Assembly: GCA_964016885.1 (NCBI GenBank)
Contig: OZ024740.1
Coordinates: 192,696,001 to 192,760,000 of the forward strand
Direction of reading: 5' to 3'
Length of the DNA: 64,000 nucleotides
Source of the DNA: Eledone cirrhosa
Lineage: Eukaryota
The position numbers and the translations under genes are program-made. Under the pieces are notes generated by a model. It did no database searches. It had not been told where the DNA came from and saw nothing but the letters and a program-made list of their open reading frames with translations. Below, one piece after another: positions 20,046 through 41,325 of this stretch (positions are counted from its first letter, which is position 1; each line of letters starts with the position of its first letter).

Positions 20046-23000
20046 GAATGGTTAAAATGTAAAATGTAAATACCCTTAAGTGAGGTTATTGAGGAAGATA
20101 GAGTAGAAAAGGAAGAGAGAAAAGAAGGGGAGAGGGAGAGAGAGAGAGAGAGAAAGAGAGAGAGATTCAGGGGTTGGAGAAATGGGAGAGAGTGGTTTGT
20201 AGATGTCTTAATCAAAATGTTGTGGTAGGGGTTTTATTATACTGGTTACTATTAAAGCAACCACCTTAAGCGATGCGTTGATAGTCAAGGTTGGAATTAT
20301 TTATTGCCACCGATGGCAGGTTCATAGATGTGGAGAGGGAGGGATGTGGACCTAGGGCGAGAGAGAAAAGGGGGGGAATGGAGAGAGAGGGAGAGATGGA
20401 GAGGGGACAGACGAGAGCTATTGGATGGGTGTACATTGAATTCATAGTAGTAGGCTACAAATTGCATTAAGTTTCCATTTATAGTGATAAGCAGGGTATT
20501 GTCTTGTAGTGTGGGCGAAGAGAAAGTGGTTAGCTAAAACGCAATGTTATAGTTACGGGTTCAAATGTTAAGTTATTTTATAGTGAGAGAATTTAGCCTT
20601 CAGTTTGTGGTTGCAGTATAATGATCGTTCGATTCTATCATTTAGTAATTTATTTTTGGATTTTAAGATGTAAAAGAGTTCACGGTTACATAACCTACAG
20701 TACTTCAATCCACCCCGATATGCATTAGCGCTGGAAAGTATATCACATTTCAAGATGAACTGTTGGTTGCGTTCACGGAGTTGCCTGGTCTTGTTGGCGA
20801 GCGTGGTCACAAAACGGTGATTACCCACCCACAAACCCCCATCTCGATGCTTTTGAACTAGACTTAATGAATACGACCATGAATATTAAGTGTATCAAAC
20901 ATAGAAGTAATGAGCTGCAGAGCAACATGAAAGCACTACTCCGAAGACTGCAAAAATACCAATGGAATTGTTGTGAAAACTGACAAGACCTCTAACGTGT
21001 ATAACATGGATATCGATACATACAACAGCTTCATACGCAAATAACTACACAAGAAATATAGAAAAACAAGTGAAACTACGCTAACAAATATTAACAACGA
21101 GGCATACAAGGTGGTGAAGAATCTCAAGATAGACGATAAAACCGAGCCGATTATACCCGCAACCCCACCTTTAACCTGAAGGACCATAAGGTAAATGCTG
21201 ACTCTAACCCTAAGATTAGACTTATATGCCCTTCTAAATCACACATATGAAAAATTAGCAAACACATGCTTGACAGAGTAATAACTCAATTGAAAAAGAA
21301 AATAGAAATTAAATTATGGGGCAACGCTAGCGAAGCAATTCGGTGGTTTAATAACGTTAAGAACAAGAATAAATCTTAGTTTATATAATTTGACAGACGA
21401 ATACTACTCTTCAATCTCACCCGGTACTTTACGTAAGGCCCTATCGTTTGCTAAAGTAAATTCCGACCTAACGGAGGACGAAATTAATATTATTCTAGAG
21501 ACTAGAAAAGCTATTATCAAGTTTGATAACTGCTACTGGGAACGTAAGGACAGACCCACAAACTTCGACATTACCATGGGCTCCAATGACTCAGCGGAGG
21601 TCACCGATTTTGTGGGAATTTACATAGCACACATACTACATGGTAAATTTAGTAATCTACAGAGGGAAATATATAGAGATGACGCGCTTTTATTAGTTAA
21701 TAACTTATATAACCAAAATCTTGAAATGCTACGAAAAAATATTAGATAATCTTTTAGTGAACTGGGTCTAAAAATAACGTACGAATACAATCTTAAAGTA
21801 GCACATTTTCTAGACGTAACACTTAATTTAAATACCGGACTGATACGACCCTTCCACAAGATAAATGAGAACCTTACTTATATCAATTTTAACTCAAACC
21901 ACCCACTTTCCATGATCAAATCGGTACCCGGTAATATTTCTCTTAGAATCTCTCGCCTATCGTCTGACTCTAAGATTTTCAGTGAACATGCTGAATGCAT
22001 TAAGGAATGCCTACCACCTGGATACAATAGAATACATTGATAAGAATCTCCATAACACACATAGTTCTACACGAAATCAAAGAATACGGAACCGGGGTTC
22101 TGAAATACAAGGGCAGTACCACCAGACATACTAATCATTGAAAATCATCACCAAACGTTGAAGAATGTATATCAGGTATAATCCCATTTTTAATGCTTCG
22201 ATTAGTACAAAACTATCTCTTTCATTCTTTAAGTTAATCAACAAGCATTTCCCTAGTTCCCATAAATACAGTAACATTCTGAACTCTAAAACTATTAAAC
22301 TATCATACTCCACGGCACCGAACCTTGAAGCATACATAAAAAAACTTAACTTAAAGCAATTAAACAACACTACAAAACAAAATATTTTAATAACAGATGA
22401 GAATAACGTAATATCGGCCTCCCAACCATTAAATCGTAGACGGGTATTACACAAGCCATATGTACTGCTATCCCAACCTATCCCCGCTACCCACAACAAA
22501 AACTGTAACTGCCACCTACCTGAAAGATGTCCATTGAAGAATAAATGACTAAAGTCCAGCATTGTTTACCAATGCACAGTTGAATCGAACGACCAGAAAT
22601 GGTATTGCATCGGGTCTACCACTACCTCTTTATATCTCGCTGGTATCATCATCGATCCTCAATTAAACATCCTGATCACCGTTTTGTGACCACGCTCGCC
22701 AACAAGACCTGGCAACTCCGTGAACGCAACCAACAGTTCATCTTGAAATGGGATATACTTTCCAGCGCTAATGCATATCGGGGTGGATTGACGTACTGTA
22801 GGTTATGTAACCGTGAACTCTTTTACATCTTAAAATCCAAAAATAAATTACTAAATGATAGAATCGAACGATCATTATACTGCAACCACAAACTGAAGGC
22901 TAAATTCTCTCACTATAAAATAACTTAACATTTGAACCCGTAATTATAACATTGCTTTCTAGCTAACCACTTTCTCTTCTCCCACACTACAAGACAATAC

Positions 23001-30719: not shown

Positions 30720-31036
30720 TTTCCTTATGCATATTAACAGCTGAGAAGCCTAATTTGCATATCGAGTGAGTTAATCGGCCGGGCGCACCGAAAATGATAA
30801 AACACACCGGGCATTATAATAAATGTTCGGTGAATCCATACGTACATATATATATGTGTGTGCATGTATGTATTTATATATACATACTACTGTACGTCTG
30901 TATACATATATGTATGTACGTATACATACTTTATTTAAGTAACAGCCGTACTAAGTGTGAGACATGAAATTTCGTTTAATTTTTCCGTTTATATATATAT
31001 ATACATGAATATATATCTGTCTCTCTCTCTATATAT

Positions 31037-31084
<48 letters not shown>

Positions 31085-31088
<4 letters not shown>

Positions 31089-31310
31089 ATAATAATAAAT
31101 TTGAAGACTAAAATCCAAAGAGGGCTCGATAAGGATAAATATATATGAAATATATAAGAACCGTAGAGCAAATATTTATTATAATAACAGATTAAAGTTG
31201 AAGCAAAGAATCGCTGAATTCACCCTTAACGGGATCTTCAGATGATCCCATTAAGGGTGAAAGCCGCGATTCTTTGCTTCAACTTTAATCTGTTATTTTA
31301 ATAAATATAT
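31085..31310. repeat. Truncated copy of the PLE tail at 38990-39150, folded back on itself (palindrome 31172-31308)
   Basis: 31085-31240 closely matches 38990-39148. Arms of ~65 bp are centred on gatcttca/gatgatc. Confidence 0.85.
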
Positions 31311-31510
31311 ATATATATATTATTTTATATTTTATTGGTTTCAGTAAATACAATGCGGCAATCCCGCGAATGTGTTCATCCCGCTTCTTATTTGCTGATG
31401 CCTGGTATGTATTTTTCTATCGTTTCTCTTTGGAACTGCTCCTAAAACACAGACGCAAATCTAAATAGAAGCAAGGACTCACACATACACACATATATGT
31501 ATGTCTGTAT

Positions 31511-35419: not shown

Positions 35420-37510
35420 TATCCGCTATTCAGCGGAATACCTGCATCTGTGGCGATGTTCACGGTGCTTAATTCCCTCAAGAACACAGGTTGATCCGGA
35501 GGCATGTCTGGAGACAGACGGGACAGAATGAGGTCCTAAATTGGCTCTCCTCGGACGAGGTCTTAGTAGTGATCTCCCGCCTAAATCATCATATGGATCC
35601 CCAGGGCTGCCCACACTTTCGTGGCCGAAGCGCTAGCGACATCTATCGATCAGGCGATCAACACCAACAACCGGAAAGAATAGAAGGAACTATTCAGTTT
35701 TTTGTCGATCATACTTTGGATCCCTACGACGGGAAGGGCTCAGTCCTCTCCTTGACTTCGAGACACAGAAGCAACGTCACTTCCATCAAACACTCCCTTC
35801 ACCAATCAATTTCTCGCTTTTCCCATGCCAACTCCAGGCACACAGTGTAATTTCGACTGTGCAAAACGGCACCTTGGCCGAGTTAATCGAAAATTAATCG
35901 AAGATGACTTTTACGCTGCGGTGCGTCAGCTGCCGAGCGATACTAGTCCTCGGCACGCGAAAGGTCCTGGCCACTCTCCGTCTGAAGCGATGGCATCCAT
36001 CAGCAGACATCAGGCAATTTCAGATCCTACACTGTATAACTGCGTTGTCTGCATCCGACGTGGAATTGACAGCAGCCTGGGATCCTTCCCAAGCTGCATG
36101 ACAGCCAGAGTGGATGGTCTGCAACCCGCCTACCACAGAGACATAATCTCGCTCCCATCCATGACACTCACACCAAAATGCTTCTTCGTGCCGACCTACC
36201 CGGCCCTGCCCGTTCTCTCTTCTCAGACAAATTAACGACATTGAAAAATAATGAAAGTGGCATTCGGCCCATTGCAGTGGGCAACGTCTTTAGGCGACTT
36301 GTGACAAAGGTAGCCTGCAGGTGAGTGGTAAAAAACCTGTGCTAGTTATTCAGCATGTCGAACAAGACGTGGGAGTTTAAGTGTGGATGTGAGGCGGCAG
36401 CTCATGTGGCCAGACATTTCATATAGTACACGCCTCCTGCATCAGCTCACCTCCTAGTGAAGCTGAACATGTGTAACGCCTTCAACAGCGTTAGATATGA
36501 TCACGTTTTAGAGACGTGTCTAAGATGTGATTCATCCCCCACCACCATACACACGTACATATCTTATCAAACGCCCAGCACTCTCATGGCTGCTAAAAAA
36601 CGGGTCAACTTCACCACAGGTGTCAAGCAAAGGAACCCACGACCACTTTTTTCGCGGTAGCTGTTGATGACATCAACCACTCAGTCAGCTTACCCTTCAA
36701 GTTCTGGTACATGGACCACGCTAATCTGGCAAGTTTGGTTGGCCTGTTGCTGATGACCTTCGGCGAGTCATCCCTGGCCTCCCTATTCTCTCCAAGCCAT
36801 AAGTGTGAGCCTGGTGATCTAGAATACAGTCTAGATGAGGTTAACGGATAGATTACGTCTCATTAACGTGGACCCGGCACTCTTCCTCCTGAAGAACTGA
36901 TTCGCTCTACCAAAATTCCTTTTCCTGTTATGCAGTGCACCTTGTCACCATATAGCAAATCGACTCCTCGAACTCGTTTGCCACCATCCGATGCTGTGCG
37001 GAACTCATCTGCAATGTTTGCTACGACCGCGCCGGCTGGCAACTGGCGCAGCTCCCTGTGAGATTCGCAGACCTTGGCCTCCGATCCACTCTGGACTTGA
37101 CTAAGCCAATCTATCCTTCCACAATTTCCTCCACGCCCGCTTACATCAACGAGATCATCCAACAGACGACAGAACCTGAAGTGGCCCGATAATGGGAGTC
37201 AGCTCTGGCTGATTGGACCAATGATGGCCTTGCTGTCCTGAAGTGTATCGATATCCAACGTAACTGGGACGACATCAAATGCAAGTCCGCCTTCATGCGA
37301 ATCGAGTCTTCCTCGGAAAAACACAAGCTCACCTGCCTATGCTCCGCCTCGAAACCTAACAATGGTGCTTAGCTCCATTTAGAGCCTTTCTCGTCAACCG
37401 TTAATCTTCTTTATAAGGAGTGCACTAGCACTGGAGTTGCATACTTTATAGTTCTCCGTCTGTGCAAGCCACAAAGCAGGTGAAGGAGTAATCGACAATT
37501 TCCGTCAGCA
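35420..37510 (+). mobile_element. Decayed CRE-like non-LTR retrotransposon (RT)
   Basis: SGIRPIAVGNVFRRLVTKVAC (~36256), VKLNMCNAFNSVRYD, TGVKQRNP (compare GVQQGDP) and FWYMD (compare WYLDD). GC-rich island with many stops and frameshifts. Confidence 0.75.
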
Positions 37511-37765: not shown

Positions 37766-37824
<59 letters not shown>

Positions 37825-37981
37825 TTGGTGCTCTGAAATAGCGATATATATATGAATGTATATATAGTGTATTTTGCAATACACTGTATGCTTATTTAAA
37901 AGCATTTCGAAGACCTTACGCTATTGTCTTAGAGTAGTGACAGTCTCACTTACTTTAAATTTTCAGCAAACGGGGGAGATA

Positions 37982-38026
37982 AGCTGACAGAGCTCTGTTT
38001 CGTACTTTTTGGTACTTATCAAAGCT
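37982..38026 (-). ncRNA. Minimal hammerhead, U3-A8 variant
   Basis: Minus strand reads AGCT TTGATAA GTAC-caaaaa-GTAC GAAAC AGAGCTCT GTC AGCT. Confidence 0.8.
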
Positions 38027-38306
38027 AAGTACTCCACCTCTTTGCTGAAAATCATGAATGTTTGATTCTTATAGAATTCTAGTCATAACCAGGAACTGAT
38101 TATACAGAGCGGTTACCGGTCAAGCAGAGATTGAAAATTAGAATTGGTGCCTGAAATAGCTATATATATATATATGAATGTATATATAGTGTATTTTGCA
38201 ATACACTGTATGCTTAATTAAAAGCATTTCGAAGACCTTACGCTATTGTTTTAGAGTAGTGACCGTCTCACTTACTTTACATTTTCAGCAAACAGGTGGG
38301 GTATTT

Positions 38307-38351
38307 AGCTTTGATAAGTACTAAACAGTACGAAACAGAGCTCTGTCAACT
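38307..38351 (+). ncRNA. Minimal hammerhead, U3-A8 variant
   Basis: AGCT TTGATAA GTAC-taaaca-GTAC GAAAC AGAGCTCT GTC AACT, with one stem I mismatch. Confidence 0.75.
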
Positions 38352-38989
38352 TTATCTCCCCTGTTTGTTGAACATTTAAAAACAGGATTCTAGATAAAGT
38401 TGGCCGTTCATGCGCAACCTCATCGACGAGGGGAACAATACATGTTAGAATGGTGAGAGGGATACAATAGAGATCATTTCTTAACTATCAGATCACGTTC
38501 AGACACCCGGGTAAACAATCTTCCACGAAGTTCGCAGTCCACATATGGCCACACAGAGACGCATGCTTGGACTACTCCATTCAAAGAATATTCTGACGAA
38601 ATCAGGGCCATATGGAAATGGGAATTTGTACGGCATCTTAATTTTTATTGACGTACTCAGCACTTCCTACTTTTCATTAATATGCTAAATTTTACCTATC
38701 GTATATTTTTTCTATCGTGTGTATTTTTTTATGTGTGTTCCATATGTATTTTTATATGGTTTATTTCACGTTAATACCTTATCTCATCCTACTCAATGTA
38801 TATATGTGTGTGTGGGCATCTGCGTGCGTGTGTACGTGTGCATATACACATATGTATGAAAGGGTATATATGTGTATATATGGGTGTGTGTATGTATGGA
38901 TGTCTACAAACGCGTGTATGGGTGAGTACACATACACCTATGTGTGTATGTACACATATGTGTGCGTATAAGTGTATATATATATATAT

Positions 38990-41050
38990 ATAGTAATAAT
39001 AATAAATTTGAAGACTAAAATCCAAAGAGGGCTCGATAAGGATAAATATATATCAGATATATAAGAACCCTAGAGCAAATATTTATTAAAATAACACATT
39101 AAATATTAAGCAAAAATCGCTGCTTTCACCGTTAACGGGATCTTCTGAAACTAAAAAAGTATATCTCTGAACTCAGAAGTAAATCTTTCAAAAAACGTTG
39201 CAACCGACGGAAGACAGGAAGATGATACTTTGGTTCGTGGAAACGTTACCTGGCAAAGAACGAAAAAAAACGAAGAAAATACGTCATTATATGTTGCGAT
39301 GTTAACTATGCCTTTCATCCTTATGGGTTCGATAAAATAAAGTACCAGTAATGTACTGCGTTGTGCCAAAAGTAGAAACAATTATTTGTTGCGGGAAAAA
39401 CAATTATACGCAAAGACAAAACCACGTTTATGGTATAAATGAAGTCGTAGACTGATATTCTATTAGGTGGTTTCATGGAGACGTTCTCTGGCAATGAGCG
39501 GGAAAAACGAAGATAATATGTCATTACGTGGTGCGTTGAGAACAATTACACGCAAAGATAAAACCACGTAAATTGTATATTACGTCAAACAAAACACAGA
39601 GTACACATATAAACACATCCTACTTACGTACGAACCCACATACACACGCAGACGCAAAACTCACGTATAGACATAACCAAATGCACATGTATCAGTATAT
39701 ATAATATATACGCCATAACATATACAAGCAAATATACGTACGAGAGAGTATACGTACCTTCACAAAACATACAGGTAATATATACTTACCTATACAAATA
39801 ACTAATGGTGTAAACATAACATATACTTAGCTACCACATCAAGACGTACAATATCCGCGTATAGTTCGTACTATCCGTAAGGCTAAAATGTCGTGCTGTA
39901 ATACAAGAAGGTTTTGTGCAATTTATGTTTACAAGCCGAAATTGCCTCAGATGTTTTGTTTAAGATGTCTTTGGTGTAGAGTATTTCCAAGGCTTCAGCG
40001 GCGCAGAGGTTACAAGGTCTTTTATTTCCGTTATACGATCTAGCCCAAACTAGGATCTCCCAGTGTAAATTATATTGGGTGTGGCTGTCTTTTAGACTCC
40101 AGATATAAGCTGAAAGAGACGTCATATTCCTTATTAAAGGGTTAAGAAATGAATGGGTATGCATGTAAAAACGCTGCTTGAATCTATTGGCGGTTAACCT
40201 TATGTAGGCCCGATGGGACGTGGGTGTTTCAACCTTACATTTATAGACAATGTTGCTAGAGAGGCATTTCCCGGATAGGTGGCAGTCAACCCGATTCATA
40301 CAATTACAGTTAGTACAAGCTACAGGGTTGCACGTGTTCCTACGGCTAGGTAATTTAGCTAAATTTGAAGCAGTCAAGTTATGTGCAAGGTTATGAGTCG
40401 TAGAGTAAGAAATTTTAATGGTATTTCTATTAAAAATGTTACTATATTTATGTGCTGGGGGGGGGGATGCTTCATAATAAGTGAGATAGAGATCTTAGTA
40501 ATGGTGTGGCCACCTCCATATTATATGGTGGGTTATACCATATAATGCGTCGGCATCTGTTTTCCCTAGGTCTATTCTCGTACTATGTATATGATACCTT
40601 ATCGACAAATCCGCTCCGGGCAAGGGCTTCATTGTAATATGTGGTATGGTCGTTGAAAATATGCTCGTTTGTAGATAGACGGGAAAGCCTCAAAGAAGCG
40701 TTTCTTACCAGGTTCTTGGTTATGCTGGCAGGATGGTTAGAATGCTTACTTATGTAATTAAGCGTATCATTCGGCTTTCTATACGGGTGGTGCAAGCCAT
40801 TCGACAAATTGAGGATAACGTCGAGGTAATTAACGACCGAGAGGTTGGACTCAACCTGTATGGAGAGATTGAAGCCTTTAAAGAAGGCTGTGCGTTCTTT
40901 TCTAAACCTGTCGCATGCACCTGGGCCGCACTTTGTCATGGTCAAAAGACCGACATCACGGTACAGACCACCGCCCACGTTGGGGAATTCTTCCTTGATA
41001 GAGAAAAGAAGGAAAAGGCCGATGAGATCAGTAACCTCCGCACATACTCA
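38990..41050 (-). mobile_element. 5'-truncated Penelope-like element (Naiad-like): RT C-terminus, GIY-YIG and 3' UTR
   Basis: GGLYRDVGL, VNYLDVILNL, PYRKPN, YISKHSNHP; CNCMNRVDCHLSGKCLSSNIVYKC...AYIRLT..FKQRF..H...CNLCAAE...CKHK. The tail has an HHR-like motif at ~39105-39150 and ends in (TA)n. Confidence 0.9.
39302..39386 (+). mobile_element. Truncated SINE inserted into a tandem repeat of the PLE 3' UTR
   Basis: SINE 3' half flanked by tgttgcg (39292-98 and 39387-93). The uninterrupted repeat unit lies at ~39467-39586. Confidence 0.75.
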
Positions 41051-41325
41051 CGTCGAATGGGGTACTATTATATTTTTCAATCCAAATAGGGTCGTCCAAT
41101 ATTAATCAAAAGTACCACATGAAAATCTACACTGTAGACTCTACAGTTTTTAAGCCAAGAAAGGAACATACCACTTTAACTTTAACACAGCTACTGAGCA
41201 GCCACGAGCAACGCCGGGCTTTACTGCTTACATATATATATGTTTTGGTTGCCATGATAGACTTATTTGTGTTTACGACAAATTTTAACCAATTCTCTTG
41301 ACAACTACAATCTTCCCATATAAGG

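Follow-up and report, generated by a model that had tools for sequence, protein, structure and literature searches.

Head-to-head copies of an abundant hammerhead retrozyme in Eledone cirrhosa, probably formed by Penelope-like insertion at (TA)n tracts

A 64,000-nucleotide stretch of the Eledone cirrhosa genome (contig OZ024740.1, positions 192,696,001 to 192,760,000; hereafter the window) contains a hammerhead retrozyme copy with truncated arms arranged head-to-head, and we consider it probable that this arrangement arose when a Penelope-like element (PLE) cut a (TA)n tract and both DNA ends primed reverse transcription (RT) on the same RNA. Several components are seen directly: the repeat unit, the hammerhead motif on one polarity, the head-to-head arms, the outer ends at unit positions u1 and u26, the (TA)n flanks, and the shared variants. 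Neither retrozymes nor inverted PLE insertions are new, and the orientation switch for which the locus was originally flagged is absent. On its sequence features, we assign the unit to a new family of a known kind, the retrozymes, with the known PLE-type insertion geometry.

Organization of the locus

The features of the locus are listed in Table 1, with unit positions u1–u319 corresponding to window positions 37819–38137. Several elements of the original prediction are confirmed by self-alignment. First, the two tandem copies are 319 bp apart and collinear over 161 nt at 93%. Secondly, the inverted segment is real, with 37954–38052 recurring reverse-complemented at 38281–38380 (100 nt, 90%, E 7e-33; another alignment gives 72 nt at 92%). 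Thirdly, the two hammerheads, which lie on opposite strands 280 nt apart, have the coordinates originally assigned to them; because the hammerhead is on the minus strand of the unit, it appears on the plus strand in the inverted piece. The string of hairpins described in the collinear part is also present in the sequence, with the qualification that AAGAC/GTCTT depends on a C at 37928 where nearly all other copies have T. The circular monomer of the unit folds well, with a z of about -5.3.

The further claim, that a hammerhead cassette had been flipped inside the second unit between short inverted repeats, does not fit the boundaries of the inverted piece. Arm 2 spans the whole left stem arm, and it ends in ...ACATTTAAA, which is the left arm reverse-complemented and not the right arm. 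A flip by exchange between the repeats should also be followed by the terminal 85 nt of the unit, and these are absent, with unrelated unique DNA beginning at 38381. The "inverted repeats" are the extended stem I of the ribozyme, used here as a 14-nt microhomology: the junction pairs the left stem arm, in arm 1, against the right stem arm, in arm 2, and because the two stem arms are complementary the ribozyme appears to be flipped between inverted repeats.

That the junction is an assembly artefact we regard as next to impossible. Independent contigs fail to bridge the inner head-to-head junction (none among the short-read contigs of three runs from one sample), but the identical junction is present at other loci with different flanks, the arms are 7–10% diverged from one another, and the right boundary of arm 2 is bridged in two of the three runs from that sample, by contigs 38343–38774 and 38351–38774. 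A genome search for the right flank found no empty-site copy.

Table 1. Features of the retrozyme locus in the window.
Feature	Position	Strand	Basis or remark
(TA)n microsatellite, likely insertion target	37768..37818		88/98 tail-type ends in the family adjoin (TA)3+
25-nt tail (u1-25), between two inferred RT start sites	37819..37843	-	outer ends at u1 or u26
Complete 319-bp retrozyme unit, RNA sense = minus strand	37819..38137	-	3,187 exact 28-mer matches
Extended stem I around hammerhead	37960..38051	-	arms 37960-37971 and 38041-38051; fold and variation in 32 copies
Type I hammerhead, U3-A8 core, GUC triplet	37982..38026	-	predicted cleavage 37986/37985; motif scan, Rfam HH9
Second unit, 5'-truncated (u1 to about u155), arm 1 end	38138..38295	-	93% match to unit 1 over 161 nt
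Head-to-head junction	38282..38295		14-nt overlap that fits both arms
Arm 2, an inverted and unusually short fragment (u234 to u136)	38281..38380	+	100 nt, 90% to 37954-38052
Arm 2 hammerhead	38307-38351	+	cleavage predicted between 38347 and 38348; stem I has one broken pair
Unique flank, unit not resumed	38381..38476		self match and one weak 74% match from query 70; contigs

The hammerhead ribozyme

The ribozyme has the defining parts of a type I hammerhead, with the YUGANRA, GAAA and NUH core elements in a three-way junction and stem I open. The core reads U3-U-G-A-U-A8-A, stems II and III have 4 bp each, the loop of stem III is the palindrome AGCU, and the triplet is GUC. Stem I is extended past an internal loop by 13 bp, and it is the arms of this extension that had been described as inverted repeats. 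In all, 97.6% of the cells of these 13 outer pairs are paired over 32 copies from two subfamilies, with A-U/G-U/G-C variation. The Rfam HH9 model matches the minus strand with 24.5 bits (E 0.0011), short of its gathering score of 52, and at gathering scores Rfam has no match anywhere in the window. On the plus strand of the unit, neither a motif scan nor an Rfam scan to E 10 detected a ribozyme of the known classes.

Among the scan-matched copies, 134 of 137 have U3-A8 and 133 have C17. The 3-8 pair covaries in 32 aligned copies (C3-G8 in 16, U3-A8 in 16); these copies are related, so the covariation reflects few events rather than 32, and is essentially one event between two subfamilies. An Rfam scan of a C3-G8 sister copy detected no hammerhead even at E 10. 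Compensatory variants occur in stem II (GTAC/GTAC, GCAC/GTGC and GCAT/ATGC) and likewise in stem III, in other subfamilies. Two features speak against activity: the predicted minimum-energy folds of the two window copies are non-catalytic alternatives, more stable than the active fold by 3.5 and 7.6 kcal/mol, and copy 2 has a broken stem I pair. In the reading favoured here, tandem transcripts would self-cleave and likely circularise. The C3-G8 sister subfamily (loci L211–L240) has 83 exact matches and likewise contains the head-to-head and tail architecture; L236–L240 are apparently copies of one locus inside a segmental repeat of ~44 kb.

Family size and arrangement of units

The unit is a non-coding tandem repeat within the 170–400-bp range of non-LTR retrozymes, with one type I hammerhead and dispersed copies; one 28-mer from it has 3,187 exact matches in the 3.0-Gb genome. 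The normal arrangement, in which the left arm is followed by the cassette, has 614 matches genome-wide, and the left arm followed by the inverted cassette has 14, 12 of them real (a duplicated pair accounts for two of the 14). For the reciprocal junction, which a true flip requires, neither of two patterns has a match genome-wide. Two candidate true flips, L033 and L039, were rejected as one-base insertions in normal units. Both arms extend to u1/u26 in 8 of the 12 real matches to the window-type junction, so the short arm in the window is an exception, and its outer start at u136 is atypical for the family.

Orientation was scored in two samples, both from contig C1 only and not selected for inversion. 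Sample 1 comprises the 79 loci behind the first 100 of the 614 matches to the normal arrangement. Sample 2 comprises 60 regions behind the first 100 of the 3,187 28-mer matches, of which 59 were counted; L204, which duplicates L060, was removed, as was a leading piece of L148 35 nt long, and each region contributed only its longest block to the count. Sample 2 leaves out 11 further loci, ten of which are in sample 1; the eleventh, L008, which is head-to-head, is in neither count. A single convergent (+ -) switch is present in 85 of the 138 loci (45/79 in sample 1 and 40/59 in sample 2), and the + - + order, that of a cassette flipped within a unit, in none.

These counts bear on the idea of a cassette that inverts between short repeats, giving a family with two orientation states in which either RNA polarity could self-cleave in an ambisense, viroid-like manner. 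The pair of opposite-strand hammerheads and the recurrence of the left junction in the genome would suit it, yet we consider it highly improbable: no reciprocal junction accompanies the 12 real inverted and 614 normal ones, no sampled locus has the + - + order, the unit is not resumed after the inverted piece, the ribozyme is on one polarity only, and the repeats form an RNA stem whose variation tolerates G-U pairs. The other original proposal, a one-off hairpin-guided accident, fares better in part, in that the stem arms do provide microhomology and the exact geometry in the window is incidental, but the event is neither a one-off nor a simple fold-back, head-to-head joining being the usual form of insertion in this family (85 of 138 loci).

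Other arrangements were seen as well. L060/L204, L116, L188 and L175 contain tandem arrays of 15–25 units and higher-order repeats with internal deletions, which read as a retrozyme turning into a satellite. An older relative at L144:956–1239, about 80% to u26–137, is again an inverted pair with a tail remnant. At L025:150–950, on the minus strand, there is a second tandem repeat, unrelated to the first, with a unit of ~299 bp that contains a type I hammerhead with a U3-A8 core; fragments of this repeat adjoin several other retrozyme loci. A loose motif scan gave at least six more hammerhead-like families, of both the minimal PLE type and the canonical type (at L005, L016, L020, L058, L098, L150, L156, L157, L178, L188, L221, L235 and L250), with the motifs of L150 and L178 being opposite-strand pairs.

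Ends, breakpoints and junctions

The outer ends of the head-to-head loci are strongly constrained. In 59 of 85 loci one side ends at u1 and the other at u26, so that the ends occupy two fixed sites, separated by 25 nt, within (TA)n, and a non-standard outer end is present in only 17 of 85. Ends at u1 adjoin (TA)3+ in 88 of 98 cases against a background of 11%; the corresponding count for u26 is confounded because u26–36 is itself AT-rich. The family has these features of a PLE-passenger insertion: an inverted truncated copy placed head-to-head (85/138), a tail at one end (59/85), and a microsatellite target (88/98). The inner breakpoints are scattered over the entire unit. They cluster at u149–158, within the outer stem, where 20 of the 170 ends fall against an expectation of 5.3, and this we read as RT stalling in the extended stem I; ends at u159–170, as a class, are not significantly enriched (8 of 170, 6.4 expected).

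Opposite arms of a locus share rare variant sites (129/692, 18.6%, in 67 pairs), as do tandem units (80/634, 12.6%, in 69 pairs), against 664/40,914 (1.6%) for different loci, and arm-arm divergence (5.3%) is close to unit-unit divergence (5.5%). Later gene conversion could be a partial source of the shared variants. They would also be found if a single cDNA, or an antisense template, folded at a hairpin and copied itself into an inverted arm, as has already been proposed for Penelope in the available text of PMC3846280. Such self-priming would fit the nesting of one arm within the other in 76 of 85 loci, a pattern that does not discriminate between the models, and the location of some junctions on palindromes, with the window junction on the stem arms and several others symmetric at other palindromes. 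We nevertheless think it unlikely. In 9 of 85 loci each arm contains 15 nt or more missing from the other, and in the eight clean cases (L047 is complex) neither arm can be a fold-back copy of the other; in three of the eight the two arms still share rare variants. Among the 17 loci with both arms shorter than one unit and with standard ends, eight are non-nested, five nested and four equal, as judged by eye. Most junctions are asymmetric, and fold-back alone leaves unexplained the combination of one tail end and one u26 end in the 59 loci.

Microhomology is not generally enriched at the junctions, with overlaps of at least 2 nt at 13 of 45 against 18.6% expected, and inserted bases are present at 21 of 45; together these indicate end joining, and the inserted bases also speak against fold-back. 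Overlap counts from a lenient aligner, for which there was no matched null, were excluded from this result. The 14-nt overlap in the window is the longest in the strict junction count.

The short arm 2 in the window reflects either internal priming at u136 or later loss of its outer part. In L1-style twin priming the second DNA end primes internally, and a version restricted to the window locus would have that end prime near u136 and copy u136–234 with no later trimming. Arm 2 begins 20 nt from the end of arm 1, the flank has about 4 nt (TAAA) in common with the template at that point, and there are a few similar loci (L002, L007 and L106); set against these are the extension of both arms to u1/u26 at most window-type junctions and the small number of loci with a non-standard outer end, and we judge this explanation improbable.

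As to the template, passage through the cleavage site two or more times is seen in 42 of 223 arms and requires a circle or an uncleaved multimer. Both arms end exactly at the predicted cleavage site, a 4-nt palindrome, in five loci with different flanks, whereas no locus has both ends at a second, control 4-nt palindrome some 20 nt distant, and two have them at a 12-nt palindrome; with small numbers and two controls, this is suggestive of cleaved RNA as a template.

Penelope-like elements and a proposed mechanism of insertion

The locus has a broken PLE 560 bp to its right (window 38939–41108, with ORF pieces at 39874–41099 on the minus strand). Its family has 69,603 candidates, with open frames near 713 aa elsewhere, and encodes an RT with a C-terminal GIY-YIG; its RWR, DKT and CxCx5C motifs match the description of the Hydra clade. 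Members adjoin (TA)n, and inverted truncated copies are present in three of nine long loci. Pfam gave no match for eight nearby ORFs or for a 705-aa PLE frame, and no consistent hammerhead was found in this family. No sequence common to the unit and an autonomous PLE was found in 15 + 9 loci of one PLE family, nor any autonomous PLE related to the unit in 62 arm flanks; because the family has no sequence in common with the unit, its role as mobiliser of the retrozyme is a guess. Other PLE families in the genome are represented by fragments 33–57% identical. Further PLE fragments in the window are located at 20559–22937, which is a second PLE (33–37% identical), and at 31030–31320. RT-like frames without a Pfam match occupy 35470–37400 on the plus strand, which we take, from their motifs, to be a decayed non-LTR retrotransposon.

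We propose that a PLE enzyme would cut a (TA)n tract, and that a PLE RT/GIY-YIG protein acting in trans on the self-cleaved and probably circularised transcripts would prime at two sites separated by 25 nt, with one site serving each DNA end. Each RT may cover a variable distance, continuing past the cleavage site on circles or uncleaved multimers, falling off the 5' end of cleaved linear RNA, and often stalling at u149–158, and the unfinished cDNA 3' ends would be end-joined to give head-to-head arms. At the window locus, synthesis of arm 1 would have halted within the left arm of the stem, and that of arm 2 within the right one. We hold more tentatively the specific version in which a PLE pair primes RT at both cut (TA)n ends, with sites 25 nt apart, on one circle of the ribozyme RNA (sometimes on cleaved linear RNA) and the cDNAs are joined head-to-head; this would imply cleavage by a U3-A8 hammerhead in vivo, and would make the unit a minimal substrate, 320 nt long, for a Hydra-clade PLE with which it has no detectable sequence in common.

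The family is a short and very abundant retrozyme with the full PLE insertion signature, such that rival insertion models can be counted against one another, and it provides a handle on how PLE inverted structures form. An RNA of 320 nt with predicted start sites is also suited to a direct test in vitro. If the one-circle version is correct, the retrozyme copies preserve the Penelope insertion reaction as a fossil record.

Comparison with known systems

Ambisense viroid-like circular RNAs are small and self-paired and contain a hammerhead. The unit described here resembles them in being small and self-paired, with a hammerhead and a likely circular RNA, but differs in having the ribozyme on one polarity, the opposite-strand copies being genomic by-products.

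The closer likeness is to the animal non-LTR retrozymes, as the available text of PMC7229834 and bioRxiv 10.64898/2026.07.22.740005 describes them: tandem units of 170–400 bp that are non-coding and low in GC, each with a single type I hammerhead, a self-paired monomer, and thousands of dispersed copies from monomers to multimers, with PLEs co-occurring. The unit differs from these in its U3-A8 core and 13-bp stem I extension, and the head-to-head architecture, tail and fixed start sites were not found in the text of either source. Non-LTR retrozymes have been proposed as non-autonomous PLE derivatives, with mobilisation by PLEs argued from co-occurrence and pLTR similarity, in the portion of bioRxiv 10.64898/2026.07.22.740005 available to us; Xenopus retrozyme families have pLTR homology to an autonomous PLE, whereas none was found for the unit here. 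A literature search, which took in few subscription papers and no supplements, found no account of head-to-head retrozyme architecture or of counts between rival models.

U3-A8 is a known natural hammerhead variant, and opposite-strand hammerhead pairs 100–700 bp apart were reported in 2014 (PMC4209133, in the text available). The unit shares U3-A8 covariation, a palindromic loop III and opposite-strand pairs with the PLE hammerheads of that report, but has full stems II and III rather than the minimal form.

For PLEs themselves, the accessible text of PMC8557442 and PMC3846280 describes partial tandems with an adjacent inverted 5'-truncated copy, a tail at one end, and a bias to (TA)n. Purified PLE extends both target strands in vitro, with two RNA start sites bounding the tail, according to the text of PMC11167929, and the origin of the head-to-head structures is stated to be open in the parts available of PMC8557442 and PMC11167929. 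As far as these three sources are available, the retrozyme insertions are like those of EN+ PLEs in the inverted truncated copy, the one-end tail, the (TA)n target and the two RT starts; they differ in that the unit has no ORF, the tail is 25 nt rather than 30–40, and the template is a short repeat unit that is read through more than once.
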